A DNA stretch of 64,000 nucleotides from Stegostoma tigrinum (taxonomy: Eukaryota). The notes under the pieces are model-generated. The model had not been told where the DNA came from and made no database searches. It worked only from the letters and a program-made list of their open reading frames with translations. The stretch spans positions 123,867,237 through 123,931,236 of the forward strand of contig NC_081355.1 of the NCBI RefSeq assembly GCF_030684315.1, in the 5' to 3' direction. Of the stretch, positions 8,459 to 63,319 are shown piece by piece. A program made the translations under genes and the position numbers. Positions within the stretch are counted from its first letter, which is position 1. The number at the start of each line of letters is the position of its first letter.

Positions 8459-8699
8459 ACAAGGATAATGAGGACATGGGAAATTTGAAAACAAAAATGA
8501 GAACAAGGGTGATTGGTGAACTAGACAATAACAACTTGTTGCTATTTCCACTTTCATGTGAGAATAGTTGGCTATGCTATCTCTAGTTTTCCGTCAGGAA
8601 TTAAACGTGAAGAAGCATTAGTGAAATATACTTGTGCAAATTCGTTAGTTGCTTCAAACAATCCTTTCCATAATGTACTTGCATAAAGCCAGGACCTCC

Positions 8700-11514: not shown

Positions 11515-11547
<33 letters not shown>

Positions 11548-29500: not shown

Positions 29501-32500
29501 TTGCCTTGTCTGTGTGTTCGTAACAATCAATATTGTGAACCGAATGAATACCCTGTATGATCAGGAGAGTATCACTTCATTTGAGCCTTGAATTCAGTAA
29601 TATGAACTCTTGATGACTCCAGCTGTTTGAGTCCTTTCCTCCAGAATTTTTCAGGAGGCCAAGGCTTTCAATTTCTTTCTGGAGATGTAATATTGTCTCT
29701 AACAACTACCTTGGCTCCTTCTCATGAGAGAATTGGCAAAAGTCCCTTCTTGTGGTTATTCTCCAAGAACATGGCAATTTGATTTGTAACGTGAAACAAG
29801 AATCTGGTCATCCAACAGGGAGCTATTGAATCATGACTTAAGTTCTCTGGCAGAACACCTATGGAAAGGGTAAAGGGCACAGTGTTCTATCTCACAGTTG
29901 ACCCAGTTTCGCATCTTTGATAATGACAAACTAGGGAATGTGGATATATTGGGACTGGGGAGTTGTTGATTCAGAAACATGAGTTAGAACAGAGTCAAAA
30001 ATCAGGGTTGTCAGATTGTACACATACATCATAAGTGCAAGACTTGCATCTGGGCAGCTGTGTTAAAGGTCGTGTACTTTTTGCAAATATTGCATGCACA
30101 CAGTTTAGTAAATGATTCACTGCAGGATTGAGAATGCTGTAAAATGTCTTGCAAGTATATGGTTTAATGCCAGAAAAGAAAAGATCTCTGCTAAAAATTT
30201 AATGTTTGAACATAACTACTAGCAACTCGATTGATCAGCTTCTCTTATAGCAGAAGCCCTATTCAGACAGTTCCGTTCCAGAGGCTTGCTTATCATAAGC
30301 CATGGAGAAATGTTCTGAATTATGAACAGTAACCCCAACATGTATTTACAATTGACAAATAGTGACATTGACAAGATCTAAAATAATGCAGGAAGTGCTA
30401 TTAGAAACTGAAGTTAACTGCACATTCTTTGTGTGTTTGTCCAGTTTTTTTTTGGTGCATTTAAAATTGTGGTTTGAGTGGTGGCAATCTGTGGAGAATT
30501 GAAAGTGAATTTTGACCACTGGTAACAATGTCAAAAAGTGCAAGCAACTTTTCACATTATATACAGACAATGCAAGTTTTAAACTTGTTTGCAAAAGCAG
30601 CCGCAATTACAGACCTACGGAGCAGAAATAGACATTGGCTCACCTTTTCCAACTTGCTCGCTGTCTTTACGCTTACCAGAAAATTATGACATCAATTCAC
30701 CATTATAGGGCCAGGAAGTACAGCAATTTAAGTATGGTGTTCATTATCAATTTCACCATTGAAGTGAATTCTGAGACTTGACTTTTAACACCTCATTACG
30801 TTTGATAAATCTATTCTGATGTTTCTTGGAAAAAAAAAACTTTAACCTCAGTTGACCACCAGAAACTAGGTAGGTGCTTAGCCAAACTCGGCTTCACCCT
30901 CAACAACTTCTCTTCCAATTCCTCCCACTTTCTACAGACACAGGGGGTGGCCATGGGTACTTGCATGGGCCCAAGCTATACCTGCCTCTTTGTAGGTTAC
31001 GTGGAACAATCCCTCTTCCGTACCTACACTGACCCTAAACCCTATCTCTTCCTTTATTACGTTGATGACTGTATCGGTGCTGCGTTGTGCTCCCACGAGG
31101 AGCTTGAACAGTTCATACACTTCACCAACATCTTCCACCTCAACCTTCAGTTCACCTGGACCATCTCTAATACCTTTCTCTCCTTCCTGGACACACCTGT
31201 CTCCATCTCGGGCAACCACTTGGAAACCAACATCCATTTCAAACTAGTATCAGAGATAATGGGAACTGCAGATGCTGGAGATTCCAAGATAATAAAATGT
31301 GAGGCTGGATGAACACAGCAGGCCAAGCAGCATCTCAGGAGCACAAAAACAAACAACTGCACCTCCCAGTCGCAAACCATTTCCACTCCCCCTCCCATTC
31401 TCTTGATGACATGTCCATCATGGGCCTCCTGCACTGCCACAATGATGCCACCCGAAGGTTGCAGGAACAGCAACTCATATTCCGCCTGGGAACCCTGCAG
31501 CCATATGGTATCAATGTGGACTTCACCAGTTTCAAAATCTCCCCTTCCCCCACTGCATCCCTAAACCAGCCCAGTTCATCCCCTCCCCCCACTGCACCAC
31601 ACAACCAGCCCAGCTCTTCCCCCCCACCCACTGCATCCCAAAACCAGTCCAACCTGTCTCTGCCTCCCTAACCGGTTCTTCCTCTCACCCATCCCTTCCT
31701 CCCACCCCAAGCCGCACCCCCAGCTACCTACTAACCTCATCCCACCTCCTTGACCTGTCCGTCTTCCCTGGACTGACCTATCCCCTCCCTACCTCCCCAC
31801 CCACACCTTCTCCACCTATCTTCTTTACTCTCCATCTTCGGTCCGCCTCCCCCTCTCTCCCTATTTATTCCAGTTCCCTCCCCCCATCCCCCTCTCTGAT
31901 GAAGGGTCTAGGCCCGAAACGTCAGCTTTTGTGCTCCTGAGATGCTGCTTGGCCTGCTGTGTTCATCCAGCCTCACATTTTATTATCTTGGAATCTCCAG
32001 CATCTGCAGTTCCCATTATCTCTCACATTTTATTATCCATTTCAAACTCACTGACTCCCACAGCTACCTAGAATACACCTCCTCCCACCCGCCTTCCTGC
32101 AAAAATGCCATCTCCTATTCCCAATTCTTTCCCCTCTGCCGCATCTGCTCGCAGGATGAGGCATTCCACTCCCGTACATCTCAGATGTCCTCGTTCTTCA
32201 AGGACCGCAACTTCCCTTCCCTCTGTGATCGACAACACCCTTGACTGTGTCTCCCAATTTCCTGGCAACTCATCCCTCACACCCCCTCCCCACAATAACA
32301 ACCAAAACAGAATCCTGTTTGTCCTCATGTGCCACCCCACCAACTTCTGGATTCAATGCAACATTCTCTGACACTTCCACTATGTTCAATCCGACCCCAA
32401 CACCAAAGACATTTTTTCCTCCCCACCCTTACCGGCTTTCCAGAGGGACCACTCTCTCGGTGAATCCCTTATCCGCTCCACACTCTCCCCTAGCCCCACC

Positions 32501-35500
32501 ACACCTGGCACTTTTACCTGCAACTGCAGGAAGTGCAGCACCTGCCTGTACACCCCGCCCCTATCCCAGGCCCCAAGAAGACTTTCTACATCAAGCAGAT
32601 GTTCACCTGCACGTATGCTTATGTAATATGCTGCATCCGGTGTTCCCGTTGTGGCCTCCTCTACAACGGGGATACCAAGCAGAGGCTTGGGGACTGTTTT
32701 GCAGAACACCTACGCTTGGTTCGTACTAAACAACTGCACCTCCCAGTCGCGAACAATTTCAACTCCCCCTCCCAATCCTCAGATGACATGTCCATCCTGG
32801 GCCACCTGCAGTGCGACAACGATGCTACCCGAAGGTTGCAGGAACAGCATCTGATATTCTGCTTGGGAACCTTGCAGCCCAATGGTATCAATGTGAACTT
32901 CAAAATCTCCCCTCCCCTTACTGCATTCCACAGCCAGCCCAGCTCGTTCCGGCCTCCCTAACCTGTCCTTCTTCCCACCTATCCCCTCCTCCCACCTCAA
33001 GCCCCACTGCCATCTCCTACCTACTAACCTCATGCTGCTGCCATTCTGTCCGTCCTCCCTGGACTGACCTATCCCCTCTCTAATTCCCCACCTACACTCA
33101 CCTTTTACTGGCTCCATCCCCACCTCTTTGACCTGTCTGTCTCCTCTCCACGTATCTTCTCCTCTATCCATCTTCTATCTGCTTCCCCCTCTCTCCCTAT
33201 TTATTTCAGAACCCCCTTCCCCTCCTCTATTTCTGAAGAAGGGTTTAGGCCCGAAACGTCAGCCGTCCAGCTCCTCTGATGCTGCTTGGCCTACTGTGTT
33301 CATCCAGCTCTAACCTTGTTATCTCAGAGGTTAGGGTGTCTTGGTTTGACCTGCCGTTGTAGTTTTTCTTCATAAATATTTTGTTTGTAAACATAGAAAA
33401 ATTATCATTCCTAAATTTTTTTGGTTTGGATATGACTCTGGCTAAATATGTAGCAAAATGCATGATTGGTTTACCAATTTTCTGCCAATTTTTTTTGTTC
33501 CCCATTTCTCTGAAGTTATGGCCTTTTATAATTCCACAGACAATAATATTTTGTCCTTAAACTGTGAACACCTTAGTTCATTCGTAAACTTTGCATGCTA
33601 AACTGAAAGAATTTTAATGCTCAGTGTGGTCTGTTGTGAAGTTTGGAATCAGTTCAGTATGCAAACATAAAAATCTAAGCTTAATAAAAACTGAAAGAAC
33701 TGTAGATGCTCTAAATCAGGAACAAAAACAGAAGTTGCTGGAAAAGCTCAGCAGGTCTGGCAGCGTCTGTGAAGAGAAAAAAATCAGAGTCAGCGTTTCT
33801 GTTCCAGTGACCCTTCCTCAGAATGGAACCTTCTAACTTAATTGACTGAACAAGCATATATCTATTTATGACATTTCAGTTTTTTAGGCACAAATTGTGA
33901 CTGTTTCTTGACTTGAGATTTTGCTAATACCTTTTGTTTAGTCTGACAAGTCCATACAAAATGTTTTGTATTCAGCAGTAAATGTTCACATCTGTAAACG
34001 TTGTATGCTATGACTGTAAAATTTAAAAAAGCGATTGATCCTTATGCTGCAAATGTATTTTTGAAATACCAAGTGGAAATCTTTTGCGCAGTTTACAGTA
34101 CAGTTTAGATGTTATCAATAAACACTGAATATCACTATTTTGCTAACATCAATATCTGTTCATTTGAATATTGTAATTAAAATATTCAATTTCTCATGAA
34201 TAGTTTTATATTTGGACTGTTTAACAACATTGCAAAAGTTGCATCAATCGCATAGTAAATAATGGCCCCCAGAACCTAGTTACTTCAATGTTTCATAGAT
34301 TTGTGAATTATTTTTGGAGCCTCACAATGCAGCGTGTGAAATATATTTTAACAATGTCCGGAGGCTAAAGAGTGATTCTATGCACCATATTGTCTGATAC
34401 AAAAATGATTAAATAAAAAGCCTCACAAATGGAAGTGATTTTCATAGCTTAGTGGGAAATGTAATGTGTCCTGATTGAGGTTAAGAATTTATGGCGATAG
34501 TTATTTATATACATGTGTGCATGCTTGCGTGGAGATGCATACGTCTACATATGTATGTGATATTTAACAATTGAGCAAACGTAATATCATGCAGGCTATT
34601 GGAACTTCAAATGAATAGGGGAAAAAATTCTCTGCAGTGATATTTTATCTATGTTTGACTACGTGAGTAGAATTTGTCTTTGAGGCTATTATTTTAGTGC
34701 AAGAAAATTATGTTCAAGTTACTTTGTTAATTTTTGACAATCTGAATCTTCACGATGTTTTTCATGTGCAGCGTGGTGATTATTGACATTTATTGACATT
34801 TTGTTGAAGTACCACCATGAAAGGTAGATAAAAGGGAATCAGCTGTAATATGTTGGGATTTCTAAAAATCAATGGATAAGGTAGTGTGCGTAAGACTGCT
34901 AAACAAAATAAGACCCCACAGTTTTGGGGATAGTATACTAGCATGGATAGAAAATTAGCTATTAGCAAACAGAGTTATGATAAAAGGGGTGTTTGCAAAA
35001 TGGTTTTTTATAACTAGTAGAGTGCCAAGGGAATCAGTGCTGGGGCCACAGTTATTTATGATATATTGTTGTGATCCCCACTTGCTTGTTACTGAACAAA
35101 TAGATCCTGAAGTGGAATTTGGCTTGATAGATAATATTTTGTTACTTTGCTTGGTTTTACTTGAACACAAGCCTGTAATGCTACAGATTTGGTTTTAAGA
35201 GAACAAATTTATTATGCAGAAGTATAATAAATCAAACTGTTTACATGTAATGCTGTTAAGATTTTGAAGCACATGGTAAAATATAATCCTGTTGATCTCA
35301 AAAACACTGCACACCAGAGAAAATTCCCATGTTTTTCACAATTTTTAAGGCTTAATTTAACTTCGGCTTCAATTCCCAGTTGTGAGAAGTTGATGGCCTT
35401 TTCCTAGAGCCTTGATGCAACTGAGTTCAGACATTCTCAGCTTCAAATAATTCCTCCTTGCTTGTAACCAAATATGTCTGGTCTGGAACTATTTAAACTG

Positions 35501-38500
35501 CTTACACTGAGGTAATTTATTTCTTAACAGTTCAAAAACATCTCCTTTGGTAAAGAACGACTGAATAACACATCCAATTTCAGCGAATACTTCTGCAAAG
35601 CTGCTAAACAGAAACCCAGAAGCATTTTTCTAAGCAATGGGTGTTTCCCCTAATTCCAAAAGAATTCCGGGATCTTTTATTTGAATGCAACGCTGTTCAC
35701 TTTACTTGTCAACTATCCCCACATAGACAAATTTCTGTCGGTCTCCTCCAGCTCTCTTTTGTTGACTGATAATTTTGTTTTTAGAAATCACCACAGCTAC
35801 GGAAATACTTACAAGTTAATCATTTAAACCCCTTCAGACATAGTCCAAAACTCTATTACATTTGTTCAAAATCCAAACACAAAGTAAAGGATATCTCTTA
35901 CCTTGCATCACACTGTATTAATCGTGAGGGAAATAGAGCCACTATTGCCACATTTGAGGATGACATGTAAAATGGGTGGGAAGGCAAGGGATGTGGATGA
36001 CACCGTATACAGACCTGCTAAGTGAGTGGGCAGAAACTTGGCAGATAGAATATTTGGTGAAAAAAAATGAGATTATACTCTTTGACATGAAGAAAAGAAC
36101 AGCTGAATGTTATTTAAATAGAAAAAGACCGCAGAAAGCTACAGTACAGAGGGATTTGGAGTCCTTGTATATAAATCTCAAAAAGCTAGTGTTCAGATCA
36201 GCAGGTAGTAGGAAAGTCGAATAGAATGGTGAACCTTAATTCAATAGGAATGAGATATAAAACCGGTTAGTCTTGACACTAGCGTAGAAGCCACTGGTCA
36301 GGCCACATCTAGGATAAAGAGTAATTTTTATCCTCTTGCCCATTGGAAGCAGTTCACCAGGTCGATTTCCGTACTTTGGTGGATTATCTGCTGAGGAGAA
36401 GTTGAATAGGTTGGGCCTATCGTCATTGAATTTTTGAGGTGTGAGAGGCAAATTTATTGAAATATATTGGGATTTTAGATGGTTTGACAGGGTAGATGTG
36501 GAGAGGTTGTTTTCCCTTTGTGGAAGGACATGATCTTGGTAAGGGATCAAACTGTTAAAGACACAGATATGGAAGACTTCCTTTTTAGAAGGTAACAAAC
36601 CTGTGGAATTCCTCGCTGTAAAGGACTGTAGCAGCTGGGTGCTTAAGAATATTCAAGGCTTGTATTCCTTTTTAACCAGTAAGGAATTAACAGGAAGAGA
36701 TAGGAAAGTGGAATTGAGGATTATCATGTCAGTCATGATTTCACTAAAAATTGAACACACTGCAGGGTATGAATACCCTGATTCTGCTCCCATGCCATAC
36801 GTCTTTTAGACCATTGCAAGGATGAAAATATCTCATTCTGGCAAAGGAGCCTATTTATTGAATGAGAGTTGAATTGGCCTTGTGCTCCAATGCAGAATGG
36901 AATGTATGAAAAATCATTTTGTAAATCATGGCTTGGCTACTGTTTGTAATATAAACAGTTCAGGTCTGTATTGCTCAAAAATTACTTTTGAAGAAATGTA
37001 CAGGCAATGTTGGCAAATTTTCTCAGTCTCAAACAGCAGCATGACACCTGATAATTTGATTTTGTCTTATAAGCGAGGGATAAATTTTGGTCAGGGGACT
37101 GGGAGAACTCACTGCTCACAGTAGCATAATGAAATCTTTTTTGTGCATCTGAGAGAGTAGACGAGGCTTCTGTTTAACATTTAATTTGGACTGTTCAGCA
37201 TAGTTAGTACTGCAGTAGGATGTCAGACTAGTCTCTGCTTGCCTCGTTTTGTGGTCAGAGGCACAGGAAGCCTAAATATATAAAAGACCTTTGTGCCATG
37301 GTTATGTGATTCTTGTGTCCTATTATAGGAAACTAATAATAAAAAAAAGATATAGAATAAATAGGAAAAATTGTATTTGTGAATCAAATTTGTTTTTCAT
37401 ACAGCCAGTGAGGTTAAGGGATAACTTCTGATGTTTGCAATATAAATAGTTCTGATTTGAATTTGACATTATCTGCCACAAAAGGTTGAAGCAAAATGAA
37501 TAAATTATTTTAAAATAAATAACACTTGCTCACCAATGTTTGATTTGGGAGTCATTATGCAAGACATATTCCAGAGATGAAGCAAGATGCTTTGCATCAA
37601 GGCACTTAACCAAATGTGATTTTGAGAAGAGTTTTTAAACGGAAGATGGTGTAAATTGAGGTTACACTATGAAACCATTTCCACTCCTCCTCCCATTCTC
37701 CAGATGACATGTCCATCATGGGCCTCCTGCACTGCCACAATGATGCCACCCGAAGGTTGCAGGAACAGCAACTCATATTCCGCCTGGGAATCCTGCAGCC
37801 ATATGGTATCAATGTGGACTTCACCAGTTTCAAAATCTCCCCTTTCCCTACTGCATCCCTAAACCAGCCTAGTTCGTCCCCTCCCCCGACTGCACCACAC
37901 AACCAGCCCAGCCCTTCCCCCCCCACCCACTGCATCCCAAAACCAGTCCAACCTGTCTCTGCCTCCCTAACCGGTTCTTCCTCTCACCCATCCCTTTCTC
38001 CCACCCCAAGCCGCACCCCCAGCTACCTACTAACCTCATCCCACCTCCTTGACCTGTCCGTCTTCCCTGGACTGACCTATCCCCTCCCTACCTCCCTACC
38101 TATACTCTCTCCACCTATCTTCTTTACTCTCCATCTTCGGTCCGCCTCCCCCTCTCTCCCTATTTATTCCAGTTCCCTCTCCCCATCCCCCTCTCTGATG
38201 AAGGGTCTAGGCCCGAAACGTCAGCTTTTGTGCTCCTGAGATGCTGCTTGGCCTGCTGTGTTCATCCAGCCTCACATTTTATTATCTTGGAATTCTCCAA
38301 CATCTGCAGTTCCCATTATCTCTCTCCTACACTGTGAAGTGGTTGGAATCATTCCTGGGACACAGGAAAGATGGTTGTGATGTGGCCAATAGTTTCAGTG
38401 CCTTGACATCACTGCACGGTTCCTCAAAGCAATGTCATCTGCTATTTCATCAGTAATGTTCTGTACATCATAAAGACTGAAATGGAACTGTTGATTAATG

Positions 38501-41500
38501 ATCACAGTTCGCTATCATTTTCAATTAAACAGATAATGTAGCAGTCTGTGCCCACAGCCTGCAACTTTTGGGCAGCGTCAAGCTGGGTTGAAAAGTGGAA
38601 AGTAACACTTGTGCTGCCAGGTAATGACCATTTCCAGCAAGAGAGATCTTGAATGCTTATGTTGATTTATAGTGATAATTGCAAACTGACCCATTTTCAA
38701 CATGCTGGTGAGTTACTATTGACCAGAAATTCAACATGACCAATCCCATGTATGGAATAGCTCCTATATTGGCGTCAGGAACTGGATATTTTGCAGGAAT
38801 CATTCAGCATCTGACCCCAGCCATCCCCCCAAAAAAAACTGACTCAACATACAAGGTACAAATTAAAAGTGTGACCAGACATTCTCTGCTTCTGTAGGTA
38901 CAGGTGCAATTTCAACCACATTCAAAGAATTCATCCAGATATATCAAGTGTCTTGATAGGTGACTGGTCCACTAATTTAACTAACCACATCCTCCACCCA
39001 CCACTGGCCACAGTGGTCTTGGTCACTGTGTATGTCTACAGGATGCACTGCAGCCTAGACATCTTCAGTAGCCTCTCATGAATTCAGAACCAACAGCAAC
39101 TCGAAAAACAAGAGTGGGATAGGGAAGCTGCATGGGAACACCTTCACCTCCAAGTTGCATACTATCCTGTCTTGGGCATGTACTGCTCTTTAGTGCTGGC
39201 TCAAAATCTTGGAAATTCTTCCATCATTGTGGAAGCACTCTGACCATGCTGACTCGGTGTTTCACAAGTAAAGCTCACTAACTTTTTTTTTGATAAAACC
39301 TACATCCCAAGAATGTTTCTCTTTTTTTTAAGAAGAGAGATATAAATAGTATGAGAAATAAGTACAAGAATAGGTTTAGACCAGGTGACACAAACTTGTT
39401 AAGCCTTTTATTGTGTGGTAATAAAGCTTAGCACCAAATTTGACCCTTAAACACATGTTGTCAGAATGCATGCTCTTCTGAAGCAGATCGGGCTACAGGT
39501 ACATTGGAGAGCACTAAAACTAATTTAGCAGCTAATGGTCACTTATCAATGAAAAGAAGTTTGCAATAGTTTAATCATTCCAATGAAATTTGGATTGAGG
39601 AAATGAATTTTGGTAGTCAGCCATCTCAAATTCAGGATATCACTGCAGGGGTTCCTCAAAGCTGCGCCCTAAGCCCAACCACCTTCAGCTGTTTCATCAA
39701 TGGCCTTCCCTGCATCGTATCATCAAAATCATACTTGCTGATTGTGCAGTGTTCAACACCATTCTCAGTTCCTCAGACTGAAGCAGTAAGTGTCCATATG
39801 GTGTATGACCTGAATAATATCCAGGCTTAGGCTGTCAAGTGGCAGTGTTTGCATGACCCAAGTGCTAGATAATGGCCATCTCCAACATCAGAGAGTATAG
39901 AAATTGCTCTTTGACAGTCATTTGACACTACGATCACCAAATCCTCCACTGTTGACATCCTGGGGTTTACCATTGACCAGAAATTGAACTGAAATAGCCA
40001 TATAAATGTGGCAAGAATAGGTCAGATGGGATGAACAGCTTAGTTTTTTTTTATATTTTCACGTGAGCAGAATTTAGTGTTAATATAAAAAGATGTGAAA
40101 GGGAGATTGTTGGAGATTGTTGAAGAGTGTAAATGTGGGAGTATGCAAAATTCATTCAGTCTAGAGTGGCCAAGTCAATAAAATGTGAGGCTGAATGAAC
40201 ACAGCAGGCCCAGCAGCATCTCAGGAGCACAAAAGCTGACGTTTCGGGCCTAGACCCTTCATCAGAGTTTATTTTAGCCTGTCTTTGGCAATGCTTTAGT
40301 TACCTCAAACTTCTTTCTTCACCTTTTTAAAACATTTACTGAGCTGGGTTTTCTGATATTAATAGATCCAGTGAATACCTACTTCTTACCAACTGCATCT
40401 GTTCGTTTGTGCCGAATGAGTAATGTCTGAATGAGTCAAAATTTAGTGCAAACCCAGTGTTTAACTCCCAGTGCCAGGGTGCTACCTGATCAGGCTTTAG
40501 TATGGGTTGGTTCTAGATTTACCAAATCGTCATTGGAGATCCTGATGCCACCATTCAGCAAAGTACAAATCCTAAAATAAAAGGCCTTTGCGAGTATGCG
40601 GTAAACCTAATTTATAATACAAACAAATTCTTGCCAGTTAAGGAATTTGCATTACCTGAAATTGTGTACTGAGAAGTTTCCCTACCTTTTAAATGATCTG
40701 AACAAACTGCCAGAATGATTTCTTTCAGATATAAGCTTATCAAAGACAATATCTAGAAGTACAAAAATAAAATTCTGTGAAAGCTAGAAATAAAAGGAAA
40801 AAGTGCTGTTAATAATCAGCAGGGCAAGTATTATCTGTGGAGAGAAAGTTAAAATTTGATATTACTATTCATTAGAAAGTACGAAAGTTCAGAGAGCCAA
40901 TTGAAGCAGTTCCCCTTGTCACGATCCACTCTTTGCTAAATCTTTGCTTAATTCTGATAACTTGAGCTTTGTATACTTAGATAGGTTTGAAAGTCATCAA
41001 GTATACCACAAATAATTCATAGAATGAGCGATAGCCTTTCACAGCCCTGGAGTTAGCATGTGATTAAATTGGTTTTTGTTCACCCTTCTGCTTGTACAAG
41101 TATTCATGTCTTCTGCTATGAATATTGCTAAATCTAGATAGAGTTTCTGATTTCAGCTCTAATTTTGAGGAATGATTAGAATCAAGGGCATATGTACTAG
41201 CTTAGCTGTAATGATTTCCTTGCTACTAAGAATGTCTTATTGTTTATAAATCTTTTCACCCTCTGGAACCAGTTATGTTACATATGGATCACTATCAGAA
41301 CTCTCGCTGTCAAAATTGAAGGAGTTGAGGAAAAACCTGTCCCACCCATCCTTTCTGTTTAATTGCTTCTGTATCCTTCAAGTAAAATTCTTGGATTGGC
41401 TCAACTTCACATTTCATTCTTGACAATTTAGACAAACTTTTGGACCGTTCACTATGCAATTAATCTCCTTAACATTCCATGAGATCATTTTTTAAAAATC

Positions 41501-44500
41501 TGTCGTCTTACCAGTGTAGCTCGTTTTATAAGATCATCTGGCATCACAGTCTGTGGCATGTTTGAAATTATGCTACTGGCTGCTTGGGTGCATTTAACCT
41601 TCAGGAATAGTTTAAGAATTTTTGACTTTTACAAAGATTGTTGTCCAAAAAAAATCCAAAGACTTTGGCTACTGCTGTTCTTAGCCATAGGGGGGCGCTT
41701 GCAGCCAAAGTATGGATTTTGTTGCCCTGACATTTAGCTGAAACCCTCATGCTGCTATTGTCATGACAAATGGAATCTGCTTGGCTTTAGAATGCTGGAT
41801 TTAGCAATGGTTATTGAAAAACTCTTTACAGTTGGTAAAGCATATACAATTAGTTTAGCATTGGCACACTTACATATTTAATCTACTTCATCTTGCCAGA
41901 ATTTTCCACATGATATTTGTTGTTCTTCTCCATTTTAATCCTTGCCACTGAATAAAGCTTCCCGTATGTGTTATCCGTCTGTTTCCTTTATAAGCACTGT
42001 TGCAACATTAATGCATCACTTTCTAGGATTTATGGGGACTGTTATCAGTAGTTGCGTTTTTAAAAAATTGCATCTGTTTGGCACAGTCACACTTAAAATT
42101 GGCACACTTTGCATGAAAATTTTTAAATTGGCTGAAATAGAATGCTCAGGATTACTAAGGAGCAGCTGTTTGAGCATAACAAATGTATTCAGGTAGTGAT
42201 AATGGGATCAAAATACATATATGTTAAATGAAAAATAAATGAAGTGAGCGAGACTGATTTTTGTATTTTAGACAAATCTCCCAGTAGTTAAAAATTGAAG
42301 CTAACAGAAGTGTTCTGTTGAGCAATCCGTGATCTATCTTCAGTCCTTGTTTAAACCTACAATTCCAAACATCAAATTGGATTTCAAGCATATAGAGGTG
42401 CCAGCTGTCATTTGTTACAAACAGTTCAGTGGATGAAATACGATTGTATATTTCTCTCTCACAGAAGATACAATATCGAGCACCTAAATTTAGTGATAAC
42501 ATGATGTAGAGGTGGATGAACACAGCAGGCCAAGCAGCATCAGAGGAGCAGGAAAGCTGACATTTCTGAAGAAAGGTCTCAACCCAAAACGTCAGCTTTC
42601 CTGCTCCTCTGATGCTGCTTGGCCTGCTGTGTTCATCCAGCTCTCCACTGTTTTATCTCAGAATCTCCAGCATCAGCAGTTCTTACTATCATCTGTACCT
42701 AAATTTACTATTGTGTTACCTTTTCCAAGTACATAATACGCTGTGTACATAATCAATGCTTATTCTGCTTTAGCCAAATGCTAATACCATAAACCAACTA
42801 TGAAAAGTATCAAGGCAACTAAACACGAGTATCAGACTTTTTTCTCTCCACTCCACCTGGCCCTACTGCCTGTCATTAGATGTCATTGTTTTATAATTTC
42901 AGGACACTGCTGGCCAGGAGCGGTTCAGGACCTTGACTCCTAGTTACTACCGAGGGGCACAAGGTGTTATACTAGGTAAAGTTATTTTAAGTATCAAATG
43001 TCTGATTTAATACACACCATGTACAAAATACTTTTAAATTTTTTTAGCAATATAACTTCTCTACTGTAAAGGAGCTTTAGGCATGAGGCACCAAATACAT
43101 TGCAGTCATATTCGCAATCACATTGAATATTGCTTTGTCCCCAAGATGAAACTATTTGCATTTAATAAATTTGGAAATGTTTTTCTTCCAGTGTATGATG
43201 TGACCAGAAGAGACACCTTCATAAAATTAGAAAATTGGTTGAATGAACTGGAGACATATTGCACAAGAAATGATATTGTGAAAATGTTAGTTGGAAACAA
43301 AATTGATAAAGTAAGTGATACAGTTTAGATTTTGTTGACTTTTAGTTTTTAGTCTGTTGTACTACAAACGTTCTGCCTCTCCAACATATTATTTATAAGA
43401 TACCTGTTTCTGAAATACCCTTTTCATTGGTAGAATTGGGATTTGTTTCTTAAAGTGCCTGGCCTTTGTCCCTAAATATTTCCAGGCAATTTTGTAGCAT
43501 TAGCAGCTGAGTACTTTGTATTTAAAACAGAATAGAACTTCAATTTAATTTTTGGCTGTTTGACCATGCCTAATCACATCATGCCTTTTCCAGCATGCTG
43601 CAAGGCTAAGCCAGTAGATGGAGCAATATGCAGTATAATGTTTGCAATATAAAAGAGAAAAAGGTAAAAGTATGATGTTTTTCTCTGCAGTTCGGAATTT
43701 GTTGTTGCGTGCAGGGAATATCCATAGCCCAGACTAGCCTGATAGTTGGGAGACTGACTGCAATTGGGACTTTTATGTATGTGCATGGTCTCTTCATCCT
43801 TCATTTATGCTCTGTCCCAAGGCAGTGCCTTGTCTTATTGCTTGCTGATAACCTGTATAGATATTTTAAAGTTTCCTTCCAACGATGCTATATCAAACTT
43901 TGTGTAATAGTTTCTTGTACTATTGATCATTGTGCTGGGACAGTTTAATCCTTGCAGATCAGCAATTCTTTTAATCTTTTGAATTCTCCTACTCCAGTTA
44001 AAATGTTTATGGTGTTGCTTAATAGTCTTAAAAATAAGAGCACTTTCACAATACAGGTATCCATTATCTTCATTAACGGTAATTAGCTACATCCTAATCA
44101 CATTGTATCAGTGATAATGGGAACTGCAGATGCTGGAGAATCCAAGATAATGAAATGTGAGGCTGGATGAACATAGCAGGCCCAGCAGCATCTCAGCACA
44201 AAAGCTGACGTTTCGGGCCTAGATCCTTCATCAGAGAGGGGGATGGGGGTGAGGGTTCTGGAATAAATAGGGAGAGAGGGGGAGGCGGACCGAAGATGGA
44301 GAGAAAAGAAGATAGGTGGAGAGGAGAGTATAGGTGGGGAGGTAGGGAGGGGATAGGTCAGTCCAGGGAAGACTGACAGGTCAAGGAGGTGGGATGAGGT
44401 TGGTCGGTAGAAGATGGAGGTGCGGCTTGGGGTAGGAGGAAGGGATGGGTGAGAGGAAGGACAGGTTAGGGAGGCAGTGACAGGTTGGACTGGCTTTGGG

Positions 44501-47500
44501 ATGCAGTGGGTGGAGGGGAAGAGCTGGACTGGTTGTGTGGTGCAGTGGGGGGAGGGGACGAACTGGCCTGGTTTTGGGATGCGGTGGGGGAAAGGGGAGA
44601 TTTTGAAGCTGGTGAAGTCCACATTGGTACCATTGGGCTGCAGGGTTCCCAAGCGGAATATGAGTTGCTGTTCCTGCAACCTTCGGGTGGCATCATTGTG
44701 GCACTGCAGGAGGCCCATGATGGACATGTCATCTAAAGAATGGGAGGGGGAGTGGAAATGGTTCGTGACTGGGAGATGCAGTTGTTCATTGTGAACCAAG
44801 ATGACTTTCCACATTAAGCAGAGGTTCACCTGCACATCTGCCAATGTGGTATACTGCATCCACTGTACCCGGTGTGGCTTCCTCAACATTGGGGAAACCA
44901 AGCGGAGGCTTGGGGACCGCTTTGCAGAACACCTCCGCTTGGTTCGCAATGAACATTTGCACCTCCCAGTCGCAAACTATTTCCACTCCCCCTCCCATTC
45001 TTTAGATGACATGTCCATCATGGGCCTCCTGCAGTGCCACAATGATGCCACCCGAAGGTTGCAGGAACAGCAACTCATATTCTCCTTGGGAACCCTGCAG
45101 CCCAATGGTATCAATGTGGACTTCACCAGCTTCAAAATCTCCCCTTTCCCCCACCGCATCCCAAAACCAGCCCAGTTCGTCCCCTCCCCCCACTGCACCA
45201 CACAACCAGCCCAGCTCTTCCCCTCCACCCACTGCATCCCAAAACCAGTCCAACCTGTCTCTACCTCCCTAACCTGTTCTTCCTCTCACCCATCCCTTCC
45301 TCCCACCCCAAGCCACACCTCCACCTCCTACCTACTAACCTCATCCCACCTCCTTGACCTGTCCGTCTTCCCTGGACTGACCTATCCCCTCCCTATCTCC
45401 CTACCTATACTCTCCTCTCCACCTATCTTCTTTTCTCTCCATCTTCGGTCCGCCTCCCCCTCTCTCCCTATTTATTACAGAACCCTCAACCCATCCCCTT
45501 CTCTGATGAAGGGTCTAGGCCTGAAACGTCAGCTTTTGTGCTCCTGAGATGCTGCTGGACCTGCTGTGTTCATCCAGCCTCCCATTTCATTATCCTAATC
45601 ACATTGTGTTCTTTTGAAATATTGTTTGTTTCAATTGCCTTCAAATTAATCTTAATAATTTTAAATGTCTACATATTGGCATTTGTCGTTGAAAACTAGA
45701 ATGTAATTGAATTATTGCAAAGAACATTGCTTCAATTTGCACAGTCTTAGTTCAGAATATTATCCAGTGATCTTTTACTCAGACGCTCTAATCAGGTTCG
45801 AGTTCAGACTTAATGAGCAAAATCTCTCCAGTATTGAAAAAATATGTACAGTGTTTTAAAGTATGCTATTATTGATTTATATAAACCATATAAATTGTGC
45901 TCCTCCCTCCAAATTTTAAATGGCTGCTTATTGTTGTCTTTAGTTTGAAAAACCTAAAATTACTAATAGATGATTCTTTAATGTTGAACTAAGATCAAAA
46001 TGCTAGAAATATGCAGCAGCAGCTGACAGGAGAAAGAGACTTATATTTTTATGAGGAACAGTTTATTTCCAAAATTTTAGTCAGTTTTCCTGCATTTCAT
46101 TTTTATTTTAATTCAATAGATTTGTACTGTTGGACTTTTACAGCCTGCCAGAACAGGTACACTGATTCATGGAAGTATCTTCTGTATTGTGATAGCCCAA
46201 GCTGACCACTGCACTTGGAATTTAATTGTTTCTGCATTGTAGCTAAACACCTCTTCCATTGAGTTTGTTAATGTTGTGAATCTGTGAACAAAACAGTGAT
46301 TTTTAAACTGCTAATGCAAGGAATATTAACACTTTGGAGATCAACTTTGAAGCTATTGAGCATTGTATAAATAAATGCTCCTGCTTAAGATCTTCCACAA
46401 AATTTCTTGTGATCACTTTCATATGCGTGTTCATCAGAAGTTATTAGGAAGTGTGATTTGTCTTATTCAGTGTAATATTACTCCAAAATATTTCATTTTA
46501 TGTGGCAATCATTAACTTCTGTGTCTTATGTTGGAACTCAAGATAATTTCGCACTTTGTTCTCTTGTTTTCTTTCAAGTGTCTACTAAACCATGCAAATT
46601 CATACCAAATTAGGCATCTATTAAGATTACATTCTTGTACACCTGTTTTAATATGTGAAATGCCTTTTGAATTGTTAATCCATTTTACTCTTCAAAATAG
46701 CAAAAGACATGGATCAAGTGCTTGTATGCTAGCAATCAGAGGCTGATTTCAAGGATGTCTCTTTATAAACTATCCCTGTAGCATTTCCTGACTGTGTTCT
46801 AAGTATTTTCCTAATCAACCTGTTCAGAGACGTTATGATATACAATATAAAACCTGAAAGAACTGTGGATGCTGTAAATCAGGAACAAAAACAAAGTTGA
46901 TGGAGAAGCTCAGTGTGGCCAGCAGCATCTGTGAAGGAAAAAAGAGTTAACGTTTCAGGTCTGGCGACCCTTCCTCAGAATGCTGTTCTGAGTTCTGAGG
47001 AAAGGTCACTGGACCTGAAACGTTAACTCTGTTTTTTCCTTCACAGATGCTGCTGGCCACACTGAGCTTCTCCATCAACTTTGTTTTTGTTCCATGTTAT
47101 TGATATACCTCCTGAAGCAGGTGGTGCTTGAGCTGAGGCTTCCTGGCACAGAAGTAGGGACACTATCACTGTGCTGCAAGAACCGTTGAATATACTCATT
47201 GCTTCTGGGGTAATAAGGAGTGCCTGAGGGTAAGAAATCTGTACCCACTGCATCAGGTAGTCCTTTCCTATTGTGGGTATCCTTTTAAGGCATCACTTTG
47301 GCCTATGTTTATGGATTTTCTACAACTATTGATGATCAATTTGAGAGTCAGTATTTCTGATCATTGTATTTCTCAGAGTAAGAATCTTCGATAGTTCGTC
47401 TGTAGTTCAGGTCTACATAGCTGTTTCCTTGCCCCACCAGGACTGTAACTGCTATGATGACATGCACCCCACTTTCCTTTCAGACTCTCTTCTGGGCTTA

Positions 47501-48360
47501 GCATCCTTTTTACGGATTTCTTTTAATGTTAAACATTTAAATAGTTTAATAACTCTACAAAGTATCTTTTTTAATCACAATAGAATTTAAAGTTACAGTG
47601 ATGTTTATCTAACGCATGTACAAAGCTGTTTATTTATTAATGCAAAGATATTCTGTTGAAGGAAAACCGTGAAGTAGACCGGAATGAAGGCCTCAAGTTT
47701 GCAAGGAAACATTCTATGTTATTTATAGGTAGGTTCACAGAAGTAACTGCTGAATTTGTTTTTGAAATGGGTGAAAGTGAGGAAAAAGTGGTTTGAGTAG
47801 TGTAGTAGGGATTTCAACAATTTTTACAGCATGTACTTGTGGTTTAACTTCTGTTTCTGCTAGAAAAAAGGTCAATGCTGAAAATCAACTAAAATTGCAG
47901 TAATGTGCTGCGGGCTAGTTGGTATCTGAGGAAGATACAATTTACTTATCCTTTGGGTGTTGCTGGAACTGCTTGATAGTTTTGCCCATTTTCTATTTTT
48001 GTTTTCATGTATGCTGTATTTATTTTGTTTAAAATGCATAACAACCATTGACTGTGGTTAGTTTTATTCATTTGCAGTTAATCAATTATTGCATGTTATT
48101 GTGCATCTATACACTTGTGCTTCACATTTAAAAATAAGTAACTTGCTGAACACTAAAGATCTTTATCAAACATTTATTTTCCAGAATCAAGCGCAAAAAC
48201 GCGTGATGGTGTGCAGTGTGCGTTTGAAGAACTTGTTGAAAAAATTATTCAGACTCCTGGCTTATGGGAAAGTGAAAGTCAGAACAGTAGACTTAGGTTA
48301 TCTGATTTGCCTGATGCCGACAGTGGAGGCTCTTGTGGTGGATATTGCTCCATGCTGTAA
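8886..48360 (+). CDS. RAB18: Ras-related protein Rab-18, join(8886..8953,17060..17115,24220..24281,42903..42975,43192..43310,47662..47728,48185..48360), 206 aa
   Basis: Manual splicing gives 621 nt: [207 protein letters not shown]1-G5 motifs and a C-terminal CaaX are present, all introns are GT-AG, and phases are consistent. Confidence 0.98.
9460..9670 (+). mobile_element. L2/CR1-group LINE fragment
   Basis: [16 protein letters not shown] resembles the KAMGPDNIP RT N-terminal motif. Confidence 0.6.
9680..10200 (-). mobile_element. CR1 LINE 3' end
   Basis: Starts with tagagtcatagag, followed by a degenerate ORF2 C-terminus. Confidence 0.7.
10330..11690 (-). mobile_element. Tx1 (L1-group) LINE ORF2 C-terminal relic
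   Basis: Minus-strand translations [52 protein letters not shown] and DKMAINRS resemble the Tx1 post-RT region (from memory). Confidence 0.65.
11510..11546. repeat. Poly-C run followed by a poly-A run
   Basis: Seen directly, inside the Tx1 relic. Confidence 0.9.
11695..12525 (-). mobile_element. CR1 LINE 3' portion
   Basis: [34 protein letters not shown] and [16 protein letters not shown] motifs. Confidence 0.92.
13040..13440. mobile_element. Old PLE-like relic with TC/CA microsatellite
   Basis: aaatgctggagaaacccagc...aacatttcaagtcc terminus, similar to the relic at 63320-64000. Confidence 0.45.
13681..14156. mobile_element. Tigger/pogo-like MITE relic
   Basis: Degenerate TIRs ta|cagcaaacgttttactaactgac ... 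gccagttaaaacaaagtttgct, plus internal ccggataatc/ccggtttacc subrepeats. Confidence 0.5.
14270..16158. mobile_element. Composite fold-back PLE: minus arm 14270-15790 (RT C-terminus + GIY-YIG), plus arm 15791-16158 (RT YIDD piece joined to pLTR)
   Basis: ORFs [11 protein letters not shown] and [10 protein letters not shown]. 14-bp TSD accacacttgaaat at 14256-14269 and 16159-16172. Confidence 0.93.
16205..16540 (+). mobile_element. tRNA-derived SINE with L2-like 3' end
   Basis: A-box-like tggcccagtga, B-box ggtttgaatcc and an atgaataag tail. Related copies at ~1100-1300, 19880-20215, 25805-26130 and 56655-57005. Confidence 0.7.
16550..16765 (+). mobile_element. HE1-like V-SINE (5'-truncated)
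   Basis: V-domain gggttttctccagctgctctgatttcctcccacagtcc and a CR1-like attctatgattctatg end. Confidence 0.72.
17060..17115 (+). CDS. RAB18: RAB18 coding exon 2 (56 nt)
   Basis: Acceptor tattttcag; encodes [18 protein letters not shown]; donor gtaagt. Confidence 0.97.
18057..18405 (-). mobile_element. Two PLE pLTR arms (18057-18184, 18320-18405) from one fold-back element broken by an inversion
   Basis: The TSD copies are now inverted: cacagcttttgattca (18041-18056) versus tgaatcgaaagctgtg (18304-18319). Confidence 0.85.
19295..19460 (+). mobile_element. CR1 LINE 3' end
   Basis: gatcagccatgatcataatgaatgg...gaagggtcgaatggcttactcct. Confidence 0.7.
22440..23540 (+). mobile_element. Rex1/Babar LINE RT and 3' relic
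   Basis: [27 protein letters not shown] and [13 protein letters not shown] motifs. Confidence 0.8.
23741..23948. mobile_element. Palindromic mini-PLE
   Basis: Inverted arms with the tail on the left. TSD taatctatacct (23727-23738) / taacctatacct (23949-23960). Confidence 0.88.
24220..24281 (+). CDS. RAB18: RAB18 coding exon 3 (62 nt)
   Basis: Acceptor ttttttgcag; encodes [20 protein letters not shown]; donor gtgagt. Confidence 0.97.
24797..25025. mobile_element. Old fold-back PLE-type element (distinct subfamily)
   Basis: aaagtgctagagaaact ... agtttctcgtgcacttt inverted arms, with the tail on the right arm. Confidence 0.55.
26150..26460 (+). mobile_element. Deu-domain SINE relic
   Basis: atggcactgtttcaaggaaagcagg...gtgtccaggccaat...agcttgctgtgtgcaaat. 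A minus-strand relative lies at ~36900-37270. Confidence 0.55.
26632..27170 (-). mobile_element. Older 5'-truncated PLE
   Basis: [28 protein letters not shown] (GIY-YIG C-terminus) plus pLTR. Confidence 0.85.
27320..28145. mobile_element. Possible ancient non-autonomous DNA transposon (Harbinger-like)
   Basis: Degenerate termini ggataaaattgt ... taagattcttccc around a GC-richer interior. Confidence 0.3.
31246..32034. mobile_element. Young fold-back PLE nested in the RT of an older PLE
   Basis: 14-bp TSD atccatttcaaact at 31232-31245 and 32035-32048. Short minus arm to ~31348, then a plus arm. Confidence 0.93.
31894..31925 (+). ncRNA. Minimal hammerhead motif in PLE pLTR
   Basis: CU-CUGAUGA-A-GGGU(CUAG)GCCC-GAAA-C-GUC^AG; stem I is only ~2 bp. 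Confidence 0.65.
33687..33823 (-). mobile_element. PLE-type terminal fragment, second family
   Basis: Same family as 46844-47093; ends at the CTGAGGA hammerhead core. Imperfect TSD tctaagcttaat / tctaacttaat. Confidence 0.75.
34800..36810 (+). mobile_element. Degenerate CR1 LINE split by an insertion at 35070-35912
   Basis: [12 protein letters not shown] before the insertion; FEDDM and [12 protein letters not shown] after it; CR1 3' end near 36800. Confidence 0.75.
35070..35912 (-). mobile_element. Probable solo LTR
   Basis: TGTGAT...ATCACA termini, 4-bp flanks ttgt/ctgt, precise interruption of the CR1, and a minus-strand AATAAA near 35207. Confidence 0.6.
37674..38327 (+). mobile_element. 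Young 5'-truncated PLE (GIY-YIG C-terminus + pLTR + tail)
   Basis: [30 protein letters not shown] tacactatgaa (37663-37673) / tacactgtgaa (38328-38338). Confidence 0.92.
38193..38224 (+). ncRNA. Minimal hammerhead motif in PLE pLTR
   Basis: Identical core to 31896-31923. Variants on + at 5454, 33233 and 45503, and on - at 7254-7281, 40238-40265 and 44207-44234. Confidence 0.65.
38340..40020 (+). mobile_element. Degenerate L2-type LINE fragments (~38340-39310, ~39600-40020)
   Basis: [24 protein letters not shown]; [10 protein letters not shown]. Confidence 0.65.
40177..40267 (-). mobile_element. Tail-less ~90-bp PLE pLTR insertion
   Basis: aataaaatgtgagg...cccttcatcagag, with an intact hammerhead core on the minus strand. 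Confidence 0.85.
42493..42696. mobile_element. Palindromic mini-PLE ~200 bp upstream of RAB18 exon 4
   Basis: Inverted arms with the tail on the right. TSD acctaaattta at 42482-42492 and 42697-42707. Confidence 0.88.
42903..42975 (+). CDS. RAB18: RAB18 coding exon 4 (73 nt)
   Basis: Acceptor aatttcag; encodes [24 protein letters not shown]; donor gtaaag. Confidence 0.97.
43192..43310 (+). CDS. RAB18: RAB18 coding exon 5 (119 nt)
   Basis: Acceptor ttttcttccag; encodes [10 protein letters not shown]...LVGNKIDK; donor gtaagt. Confidence 0.97.
44107..45591. mobile_element. Large fold-back PLE (~650-bp inverted arms) in RAB18 intron 5
   Basis: GIY-YIG ORFs on both strands. 16-bp TSD atcctaatcacattgt at 44091-44106 and 45592-45607. 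Confidence 0.95.
46844..47093. mobile_element. Palindromic mini-element of the second PLE-type family
   Basis: ~80-bp near-perfect arms with the tail on the left. Imperfect TSD acgttatgatatac / atgttattgatatac. Confidence 0.85.
46990..47029 (+). ncRNA. Minimal type I hammerhead ribozyme motif
   Basis: GAGUU-CUGAGGA-A-AGGUC(ACUG)GACCU-GAAA-C-GUU^AACUC: 5-bp stem I, 5-bp stem II and a palindromic AACGUU stem III region. Confidence 0.75.
47662..47728 (+). CDS. RAB18: RAB18 coding exon 6 (67 nt)
   Basis: Acceptor ttctgttgaag; encodes [22 protein letters not shown]; donor gtaggt. Confidence 0.96.
48185..48360 (+). CDS. RAB18: RAB18 coding exon 7 (176 nt to the stop)
   Basis: Acceptor ttattttccag; encodes [28 protein letters not shown]...GGYCSML then TAA. 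Confidence 0.97.
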
Positions 48361-58081: not shown

Positions 58082-58250
58082 GATAATAGGAACTGCAGAT
58101 GCTGGAGAATCCGAGATAACTAAGTGTAGGGCTGGATGAACACAGCAGGCCAAGCAGCATCTTAGGAGCACAAAAGTTGACGTTTCGGGCCCAGACACCT
58201 GCTCCTAAGATGCTGCTTGGCCTGTGTTCATCCAGCTCTACACTTTGTTA
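58082..58250. mobile_element. Palindromic mini-PLE
   Basis: 14-bp TSD catctaataacaga at 58068-58081 and 58251-58264. Confidence 0.9.
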
Positions 58251-59893: not shown

Positions 59894-61931
59894 CTGAAAG
59901 TATAGCTGGGCCTTTATATAAATTGAAGTGTCACATACTTTTACACAATTATGGAATATAATCATTGGAATGTGCCCATGATTTTTATTTGAACTTTCAC
60001 TGAATGTCAAAGTAGTACATTTGTGTCCTTAATGTTTGTGTATAAAAATAAGTTAAGTGCCCTGTATGTTTGGATGAGGTCAACAGCTCTCTCAAATATT
60101 TTGTTCATAAATCTCACACGGATTGAGGCCGACAATTACGTATGTTGTGTCCTGGCTTGTGGGTACTGAACACACATTTACTCTAACATAAAGTAAGATT
60201 TATTACCCTAGTTTATAAACTTGGCATGGTGTCTAATAAACTATAATCCATGAGGATCTTGATCTTGACATGAGGTATTCAAAGATTTTTGCTGAGACAT
60301 TTGTTCCATCTGTTTAAAAGAAAGCATATATTTTCTTTAAAGGGCTTTCTCATATATTTTGCAGTTGTAGAAATCAAAGGTTGCAGCTAGTGTTTATTTA
60401 TACACCAGAATTTAAAGCCTAAAGTTTTTAACTATTATCAGTATGGAAAAGAAAACTACAGGAGATTATGCAGTGTTACTAAATCTTGCCACAACGAGTA
60501 AGTCTGGTTGGGAGAAGAAAACTTTATTTATTAACAGGCTCTCATACTGTTACATTGTATACCTGTACCTAAACAAGAAGCAACAATTTTACAGATTTCC
60601 TTTTATTAAGTTTGTTTATAAACGGATATGACTATGTTTGGCATTGCAAGTGGTATTGAGGTTTGCTTGAACACGTTCGAGTAAGGCTGAAATTCAAGCT
60701 TGAATTAATTAAGTCTTAACTTATAATGACTGTCAGTAAATAAGATGGTTTATTAGATCTCAGGTCAGTCTTTGATGTTTTGATCAAAGGCAATAGTTGT
60801 CCTGCTAAATCTAAACATGACGAATGCATCCCCATTCCAAGTAATCTATATATGGTATCTCTGACTCCCTGTCTTACTTAAAGTGATTGGGGCGTCAGTG
60901 ATGGTTCTTGACTTATTCTTTCAACTCAATTCTATTGCCATTTTAGTGGTAACTAATGTAATTGTTTATTTTCACATATCCGGTAGATCTGAGTGGATTA
61001 TTTTTGTTGTCTGCTGTACTGGTTTAAAACATGAAGTTGATGGAAAATGTAACATCAGGCACAGAATTCAGTCCTTATCTAATTGCTTTTAAAATGGCCA
61101 CCACCACAGAGTGTTGCCCTGCGTCCTGTGTTTCCCTGTAAATATATAGTAATGATTGCCATGTAACTTAAAGTCAGATCATTTGCTCTGTGTTTTCAAA
61201 TATCAAAAGAGAAGTAACATCCTGTCATGCTTGTCATTCCTGCAGCCCTGATCAACACAGCAGTCTCTTTTAAAGCCAGCCCCGTACTGGGATTCTTCTG
61301 TTGCCATGCCATGTGGAAGTTCAGTTTTGTAACTAACTGCACCACCCAGTTCGCCATTTATCAATGCTCCTTCATTGCTGACATTTTCACCACTTTTTTT
61401 TCCAACATAATACATTTAACATTCCCCTTTGGCTGCATGAAATCTAGCAAGAAGCAAAATTGTAATATAGCCGTGAAAATGTGGACTGAAATTTTCATTT
61501 CGAAAACAGTTTAATAATTAAGCCCTAAAATTTTATAAAAAGTAAAACATGGAACTCTTTGTTGCAAAGTGCTTGCCTTTAGTAAGATTGTTGACATCAG
61601 ATTTGTTGCTGGATTATAAACATTATTCTTGTACTTACTTTCTTTCTGGTTTTCTCCCCAGTGATAGGTTGGAGTCAGCTCAGGTAGCCGTCCCTTCATG
61701 CAATTGATGCTTTATTCTCATCTTTTTGTGATTATAAAGTTGGATATGTCAATGCCCAGAGTAATCCTAGGTCAAGTATTATTTAAAGATGAATGCAGCT
61801 TCTGAACTACCCCAAAGCCGTGATTTTTTTTCATAGTTCTTAATTGAACTGGCTGTTCATTTTGTTCAGCCTTCTGTAGATTCAATACAATGACATTTTC
61901 AAGAAAATAGCAGTATGAATTACTGAATTTA

Positions 61932-63232
61932 GAGATAATGAGAACTGCAGATGCTGGAGAACCCAAGATAATAAAGTCTGAAGCTGGATGAACACAGCAG
62001 GCCAAGCAGCATCTCAGGAGCACAAAAGCTGACGTTTTGGGCCTAGACCCTTCATCAGAGAGGGGGATGGGGAGAGGGTTCTGGAATAAATAGGGAGAGA
62101 GGGGGAGGCGGACCGAAGATGGAGAGAAAAGAAGATAGGTGGAGAGGAGAGTATAGGTGGGGAGGTAGGGAGGGGATAGGTCAGTCCAGGGAAGATGGAC
62201 AGGTCAAGGAGGTGGGATGAGCTTAGTAGGTAGGAAATAGAGGTGCGGCTTGAGGTGGGAGGAAAGGATGGGTGAGAGGAAAAACCAGTTAGGGAGGCAG
62301 AGACAGGCTGGGCTGGTTTTGGGATGCAGTGGGGGAAGGGGATGAGCTGGGCTGTTTTTGGGATGCAGTGGGGGAAGAGTAGATATTGAAGCTGGGGAAG
62401 TCCACATTGACACTATTGGGCTGCAGGGTTCCCAAGCGGAATATGAGTTGCTGTTCCTGCGACCTTCGGGTGGCATCATTGTGGCACTGCAGGAGGCCCA
62501 TGACAGACATGTCATCTAAAGAATGGGAGGGGGAGTTGAAATGGCTCGCGACTGGGAGGTGCAGTTGTTTATTGTGAACCGAGTGGAGGTGTTCTGCAAA
62601 GCGGTCCCCAAGACTCTGCTTGGTTTCCCCGATGTAGAGGAAGCCACACCGGGTACAATGGATACCGTATACCACATTGGCAGATGTGCAGGTGAACCTC
62701 TGCTTAATGTGGAAGGTCATCTTGGGGCCTGGGATGGGGGTGAGGGAGGAGGCGTGGGGGCAAGTGTAGTACTTCCTGCGGTTGCAGGGGAAGGTGCTGG
62801 GTGTGGTGGGGTTGGAGGGGAGTGTGGAGCGAACAAGGGAGTCACGGAGAGAGTGGTCTCTCCGGAAGGCAGGCAAGGGTGGGGATGGAAAAATGGCTTG
62901 GGTGGTGGGGTCGGATTGTAGATGGCGGAAGTGTCGGAGGATGATGCGTTGTATCCGGAGGTTGGTGGGGTGGTGTGTGAGAACAAGGGGGATCCTCTTG
63001 GGGCGGTTGTGGCAGGAGCGGGGTGTGAGGGATGTGTTGCGGGAAATGCGGGAGACGCGGTCAAGGGCGTTCTCGACCACTGTGGGGGCAATGTTGCGGT
63101 CCTTGAAGAACGTGGACATCTGGGATGTGCGGGAGTGGAATGCCTCATCGTGGGAGCAGATGCGGCGGAGGCGGAGGAATTGGGAATAGGGGATGGAATT
63201 TTTGTAGGAGGGTGGGTGGGAGGAGGTGTATT
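61932..63232 (-). mobile_element. Young 5'-truncated Neptune-like PLE
   Basis: TSD ctgaattta at 61923-61931 and 63233-63241; uninterrupted reading frame through the GIY-YIG domain. Confidence 0.94.
62289..63232 (-). CDS. PLE polyprotein C-terminal fragment (RT thumb/linker + GIY-YIG endonuclease), lacking its 5' end
   Basis: About 314 open codons: [44 protein letters not shown]...RFAEH. The N-terminal ~12 aa of the listed ORF come from flanking DNA. Confidence 0.75.
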
Positions 63233-63319
63233 CTGAATTTACTCCATCTAATGATACTTCTAGCCCCAATCAAAGACAATTCTTCAAATAATCTGGCCTC
63301 AAACATCTGAGTATCACAA

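Follow-up and report, generated by a model that had tools for sequence, protein, structure and literature searches.

The 64,000-nucleotide stretch of Stegostoma tigrinum DNA analysed here (the window) carries hammerhead-like motifs in the introns of a gene which we take to be RAB18, named from short Rab motifs that also located its exons. The locus raises two questions: what these motifs are, and whether they cut the pre-mRNA that contains them. The sequence-only reading of this DNA had described a hammerhead at 46990-47029 and had suggested that several sense copies in one pre-mRNA could dimerise and cleave the introns, unless the fold-back arms mask them. Assembled contigs from a related organism span the exons of RAB18; a long one passes from exon 7 into upstream sequence that does not align, as would fit a spliced mRNA; these contigs are swamped by repeat copies and serve here for exon cover only. 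Since RAB18 lies on the + strand, the five + strand cores are sense; intron 3 holds three of them and intron 5 the other two (Table 1).

Table 1. Position, strand and character of the features discussed in the text.
Feature	Position	Strand	Remarks
RAB18 coding span	8886..48360	+	seven coding exons, stop near 48360
RAB18 exons	8886-8953, 17060-17115, 24220-24281, 42903-42975, 43192-43310, 47662-47728, 48185-stop near 48360	+	
TATA-like box	31862..31868	+	in ORF-linked family A pLTR, at -34 from C3; putative promoter
Family A core	31896..31923	+	2-bp stem I; end of young 5'-truncated copy
Older family A subfamily core	33233..33260	+	2-bp stem I (U-A, U-G)
Family A core	38195..38222	+	2-bp stem I; 40170-40267, some 2 kb downstream, is a 96% antisense copy
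Intact antisense family A core	40238..40265	-	RAB18 intron 3
Head-to-head family A insertion	44110..45594	.	GIY-YIG end and pLTR on each arm
Family A core	45503..45530	+	2-bp stem I; predicted masked by inverted copy 44110-44786 (core 44234)
Left copy, probable target-site duplication	46832..46843	+	12 nt
Long arm with tail (-2 to +131)	46849..46980	-	own core 46978, 2-bp stem I
Family B minimal type I hammerhead	46990..47029	+	RAB18 intron 5; C3 46995; predicted cut 47024/47025
Parts of the family B hammerhead	46990-46994 (stem I 5' arm), 47002 (extra A), 47003-47007/47012-47016 (stem II), 47017 (G12), 47024 (H17 = U), 47025-47029 (stem I 3' arm)	+	
Short arm of fold-back insertion (pLTR, -4 to +97 from C3)	46991..47091	+	85% to ORF-linked copy L011
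Right copy, probable target-site duplication	47096..47108	+	13 nt; one extra T relative to left copy
Longer family A fragment with GIY-YIG end	61931..63269	-	query for full-length copies

The claim that all helices form at 46990-47029 agrees with the letters, which hold a 5-bp stem I, a CUGANGA box, a 5-bp stem II, GAAA and a CG palindrome; stem III has no loop and therefore needs a dimer to form. The four remaining sense cores named in that reading (31896, 33233, 38195 and 45503) were all found, but each with a 2-bp stem I, and the cut position it gave for the first, 31923/31924, is correct. Folded in isolation, the 40-mer is predicted to form stems I and II at -10.0 kcal/mol (z -1.38; 18 of 200 shuffles equally good). 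Its 10.1-11.1 pair is A-U; family B carries G in 54 of 63 and C in 41 of 63 copies at these positions, and 14 variants compared across families have G-C in 10 cases and G-U in 3. The A-U pair at 10.1-11.1 would be expected to lower activity. The fifth stem I pair of this copy is not native, as the ORF-linked copies carry C at that place.

Hammerhead searching was the check proposed in the sequence-only reading. Descriptors found cores above chance: the loose one gave 24 in the window against a shuffle mean of 7.1 (a count reached in 0 of 100 shuffles), and the strict one gave 10, of which 7 lie within RAB18 (5 sense, 2 antisense). An Rfam scan of the window returned no hammerhead match, only weak microRNA-like matches on fold-backs. 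With relaxed matching, the RAB18 introns that hold sense cores also hold 6-7 antisense ones. Sense cores are denser in RAB18 than average (5 in 39.5 kb against 1.5 expected, Poisson p 0.018), in a window picked for its cores. More short pLTR fold-backs lie at 5334-5546, 8248-8450, 23741-23937, 42495-42690 and 58079-58250, some with weak Rfam microRNA-like matches; they could be dsRNA or editing substrates. The copy ending in core 31896 (31348-31985) is 100% complementary to 7192-7829, and 638 nt of such complementarity 23.5 kb apart would fit very young insertions or gene conversion. On the - strand, 1643-2035 and 12060-12470 are what we take to be fragments resembling CR1-type LINE RT; the one scanned gave no Pfam match.

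Between families, the stems covary. The 14 variants were hand-chosen and selected on the core, so that their covariation, not their invariance, counts as evidence: in 10 of the 11 pairs both partners vary, the covariation score was reached by 0 of 500 shuffles, and covarying pairs amount to 4 of 4 in stem I and 5 of 5 in stem II. Paired cells make up 87% of the set against 14-36% in slid controls. All 11 catalytic positions are invariant in these chosen rows, with N7 and the stems variable. The earlier suggestion that differing stems around a constant core reflect selection on structure is thus borne out between families. Within families, CpG sites inside the core and palindrome have decayed by 14-49%. 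Covariation between families together with decay within them indicates selection on active elements, not on inserted copies.

Class features were counted in 1.2 Mb around kinase internal exons (60 of 139 matches, about 10 kb on each side, flanks assumed intragenic), where the strict descriptor finds 85 cores against 1, 2 and 1 in shuffles. The CUGANGA and GAAA boxes plus UH, which a PLE minimal type I hammerhead requires, are present. An extra nucleotide stands between positions 9 and 10.1 in 82 of the 85 cores (the descriptor allowed 0-2), and the palindromic 15.2/16.2 without loop 3 reads CG in 56, as in the 46990-47029 copy, and CA or TG in 26, which fits CpG decay. Published minimal hammerheads of Penelope-like elements (PLEs) likewise have the extra nucleotide, the palindrome and dispersed single copies (PMC4209133). 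The shark motifs share with them the type I core, the extra nucleotide at 9/10.1, G10.1-C11.1 in the families, 15.2/16.2 without loop 3, covarying families, and a layout of mostly single dispersed copies with opposite-strand pairs. Stem II has 4-6 bp here against 7-8 in the published description of Schistosoma, and stem I of family A only 2 bp. The hammerhead at 46990-47029 and its sister cores are PLE minimal hammerheads. By eye, stem I of families A and B is possibly extended by distal pairing, and that of family C (L031, L044, L057, L087) may gain 5 bp past an internal loop, which would bring it closer to a canonical type I hammerhead.

The carrier itself is present in the genome. A protein search of the 3.2-Gb assembly with the window fragment gave 150 scored matches out of 237,156 candidates, of which 12 with long frames were fetched. 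Full-length family A has the order pLTR(HHR), a 1,105-codon RT/CxxC/GIY-YIG frame and pLTR(HHR), with the cores 3,672 nt apart in copy L157; the profile matches of this copy (RVT_1, E 2.4e-5; GIY-YIG, E 0.0036) are both below the Pfam cut-offs. L157 also holds a CX2-5CxxC linker between RT and EN, as in the Neptune clade, to which it may belong. Family A is an EN+ Penelope-like element, Neptune-like by its linker, a feature common also to Nematis in the published account (PMC8557442) and one that sets it apart from Anolis Poseidon PAc as described. In family B, to which the 46990-47029 copy belongs, 14 copies have a common upstream UTR; its two 3' ends, shared tail and fold-back arrangement suggest that this family too belongs to the EN+ PLEs. 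Genome-wide counts are 102,380 for the exact family A core (control 0), 774 for one exact family B pattern and 23,119 for cores lacking G at 10.2, whose reversed control gives 175. Published counts for coelacanth and Xenopus are 4,000-9,000, against more than 100,000 here. As side observations, the intact PLE frame at L157:2329-5643 has a PPTVDADGT-type repeat of variable length ahead of RT, and a short family A fold-back is lodged inside a full-length copy of the same family at L165:2794-3014.

A first class of copy ends lies at the predicted bond. Genome-wide, family A starts number 293, 1,051, 329 and 437 at +27, +28 (the cut), +29 and +30, or 725, 2,184, 824 and 1,074 after correction for composition, a one-base excess of 2.4-3-fold. 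This excess of about 1,300 set against 102,380 intact cores corresponds to roughly 1%. Of 25 sampled cut-site matches, 20 were true junctions by reading (two of them tandem restarts) and 5 were indels; some junctions carry 2-nt microhomology. The peak is invisible in the 1.2-Mb sample, where 6 of 218 family A and 5 of 124 family B copies start within 2 nt of the cut. An AGCT-palindrome fold-back was considered and rejected as the source of the family A peak; the pattern excludes such junctions, and about 2 of the 25 loci look like one. In family C, 36 starts fall at the cut against 15 and 16 at its neighbours, and without 11 palindromic rows, which the neighbour patterns do not see, 25 against 31 (p 0.16, not significant). 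These 11 rows, from 7 loci, and one further near-perfect case (L233/L234 and L230 among them) are fold-backs mirrored exactly at the predicted cut, as if both cDNAs had run off a cut RNA, although neighbouring positions are not comparable.

The peak may have another origin. The motifs could be catalytically dead, with a conserved fold that binds protein or acts as a promoter element, and microhomology or RT pausing could produce the peak. Most templates seem to have been copied uncut, including read-through across the 5' core in L157 and L160; stem I of family A has only 2 bp, one fifth of the sampled matches (5/25) are indels and some matches share 2-nt microhomology, the family C excess is not significant once the palindromic rows are set aside, and the Anolis study reports no RNA-seq ends at the site (PMC11167929). 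Against this stand the covarying stems, with 11 catalytic positions invariant in 14 rows selected on the core, a peak one base wide at the predicted bond, and tandem restarts that begin anew at the cut base (family A, L221:1505-1640 and L205); in addition, the Anolis motif cleaves, with C3/G8 rescue (PMC11167929). We regard dead motifs as a possible but less likely reading. The one that we lean towards, with some reserve, is that the ribozyme would cut roughly 1% of family A templates in vivo, probably as a dimer or helped by the element's protein.

A second class of copy ends lies at the 5' edge of the ribozyme. Among tailed copies, 107 of 218 in family A and 59 of 124 in family B start within 9 nt of C3, a density of 5.6 and 3.1 per nt at the edge against 0.09 and 0.06 upstream. 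The DNA upstream of these starts is, among the rows listed, target or inverted arm and not diverged UTR. Family B has a TATA-like box at -33 and an initiator-like motif at -6 to -1, while the 52 copies of family C show neither the 5'-edge peak nor a box at -33. A TATA box with an initiator-like motif was noted earlier in an Adineta pLTR (PMC3846280, PMC8557442). The edge might instead mark a splice acceptor or a block to RT: family B has a branch-point-like motif, pyrimidines and an AG just before stem I, and a D. virilis intron ends at helix I (PMC4209133). Family B starts, however, are worn back step by step from -9, contain the AG and have no upstream exon in common; RT would reach the 3' side of the ribozyme first; and family C has the ribozyme without the edge peak or the box. 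We consider splicing or a block a minority reading, which keeps some weight. Whether the edge is the element's own transcription start, at stem I with the box about 30 nt upstream, is in our judgement evenly balanced; the ribozyme would then sit at the 5' end of an RNA most of whose copied molecules were uncut.

Following the carrier to the locus, the insertion around 46990-47029 shows an inverted pLTR, a tail on one end and a probable target-site duplication, as expected of an EN+ Penelope-like insertion. Its sense arm pairs with the upstream arm at 94% over 101 nt, and this antisense arm is transcribed before the 46995 core. The 241-nt fold-back is predicted to fold at -182.2 kcal/mol (z -25), with core 46995 paired base by base to core 46978 (stretch 46951-46978), and the stem II probability of the former falls from about 1.0 alone to 0.0 in context. 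Core 45503 is likewise predicted to pair base by base with core 44234, in a fold-back of about 640 nt. The masking caveat of the sequence-only reading thus holds for both cores. Being predicted to pair with the inverted copy from its own insertion, the 46990-47029 motif is likely silent: we consider it quite probable that a PLE pLTR minimal hammerhead lies here as a silent passenger of RAB18, zipped into a predicted hairpin of about 100 bp.

Such layouts recur in the 1.2-Mb sample. Insertions are often head-to-head, with arm ends near +92 and near +127. Of 74 head-to-head pairs, 65 unite one long arm with one short arm, a count that 0 of 10,000 permutations reach (mean 35.7); there is 1 tail-to-tail pair. 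Head-to-head arms, a one-end tail and a target-site duplication also characterize described inverted-pLTR insertions, whose one-sided tail was already known (PMC3846280, PMC8557442); unlike those described, the arms here are often only 100-135 nt long and start at the ribozyme edge. As in Anolis PAc (Frangieh et al. 2024; PMC11167929), the HHR lies in the pLTR, uncut RNA would be the main template, two internal RT start sites would bound the tail, and both strands would be nicked and extended. The minimal hammerhead of PAc, a Poseidon element, needs the PLE protein; its ORF starts inside the HHR, whereas the long frame in the shark begins about 130 nt after C3, and it is described without RNA ends at the cut, where we find a genomic peak. 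By analogy, both target strands would be primed from the two internal RT start sites.

Some points favour the proposal that stem III pairing between sense copies of a single RAB18 pre-mRNA leads to cutting of intron 3 or 5, frequently enough to alter expression. The gene holds five intact sense cores with the CG palindrome; 1.3 kb separates 31896 from 33233, and neither has an inverted core close by; the isolated 46995 homodimer is predicted to be only about 2 kcal/mol worse than the monomers; the family A ribozyme seems capable of occasional cleavage; and an intronic ribozyme is reported to affect Cpeb3 (PMC10919898). Energies, computed by models without tertiary contacts or proteins, nevertheless speak against it. 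Two of the five cores are masked, and the active dimers of the three unmasked family A cores, each with its 2-bp stem I, lie 16-17 kcal/mol above the monomer folds; in 250-nt context their stem II probabilities do not exceed 0.02. The gene has a single family B sense core, and published minimal hammerheads are described as inactive as monomers and weak as dimers in vitro (PMC4209133).

The strand test in host introns points the same way. Orientation of the 85 strict cores is 45 sense against 40 antisense (p 0.67; 95% interval 0.42-0.64 sense). An inverted partner lies within 200 nt of 29 cores and within 3 kb of 23, and the 33 unpartnered, hence unmasked, cores divide 16 to 17. Intact cores make up 35 of 53 sense and 43 of 66 antisense copies in family A and 11 of 28 and 10 of 35 in family B. 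Of the 60 regions, 13 contain at least two sense cores and 11 at least two antisense ones. The test rules out strong purging only. Cleaved introns may be tolerated via exon tethering, so that the lack of strand bias is no proof of a lack of cutting. Given the masking, the costly dimers and the absence of strand bias or differential decay, dimerisation and cleavage of the RAB18 introns were not borne out, and we hold the proposal improbable; some low-level cutting of these introns may occur. Domestication of this copy as a RAB18 regulator, like the amniote intronic hammerheads, is scarcely credible: the related-organism contigs that flank the site, one overlapping the right-arm end, give a weak hint of a shared insertion, but the copy is 85% identical to family B, is masked, no longer carries G10.1-C11.1 and has no loops for tertiary contacts.

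Both the domesticated amniote hammerheads (RECK and others; PMC6155905) and the non-LTR retrozymes (bioRxiv 2026.07.22.740005) are, like the shark motifs, intronic, type I and retroelement-derived. The former are single, conserved and canonical and the latter form tandem arrays with mild intron avoidance, whereas the shark copies are dispersed, minimal and decaying. In this genome, the motif at 46990-47029 is one of many decayed copies in minimal form, unlike a domesticated hammerhead, and no head-to-tail tandem hammerhead units, a retrozyme trait, were found in the window, where copies are dispersed or head-to-head. A literature search, mostly of open papers, found none on shark PLE hammerheads (the supplement of PMC4209133 may list sharks) and none that treats insertions ending at the cut or a strand bias of minimal hammerheads in introns. 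PMC8557442 describes the role of hammerheads in PLEs as unclear.

Taken globally, the hammerhead probably does not matter for RAB18 function, and after insertion into host introns the copies would be neutral and decaying. A bolder and very unlikely view places a protein-gated PLE hammerhead at the 5' end of the element RNA in sharks, with the PLE protein triggering intron cleavage transcriptome-wide; if true, that protein, for example in the germ line, would activate unmasked sense copies in tens of thousands of introns, including RAB18 intron 3. As it stands, a vertebrate tolerates intact sense cores in its introns at a density of about one per 27 kb, and no strand bias is apparent. With more than 100,000 copies, its junctions offer a countable read-out of where the element RNA may start, of a cut rate that would be about 1% and of two-ended insertion, making the genome a record of the PLE mechanism.
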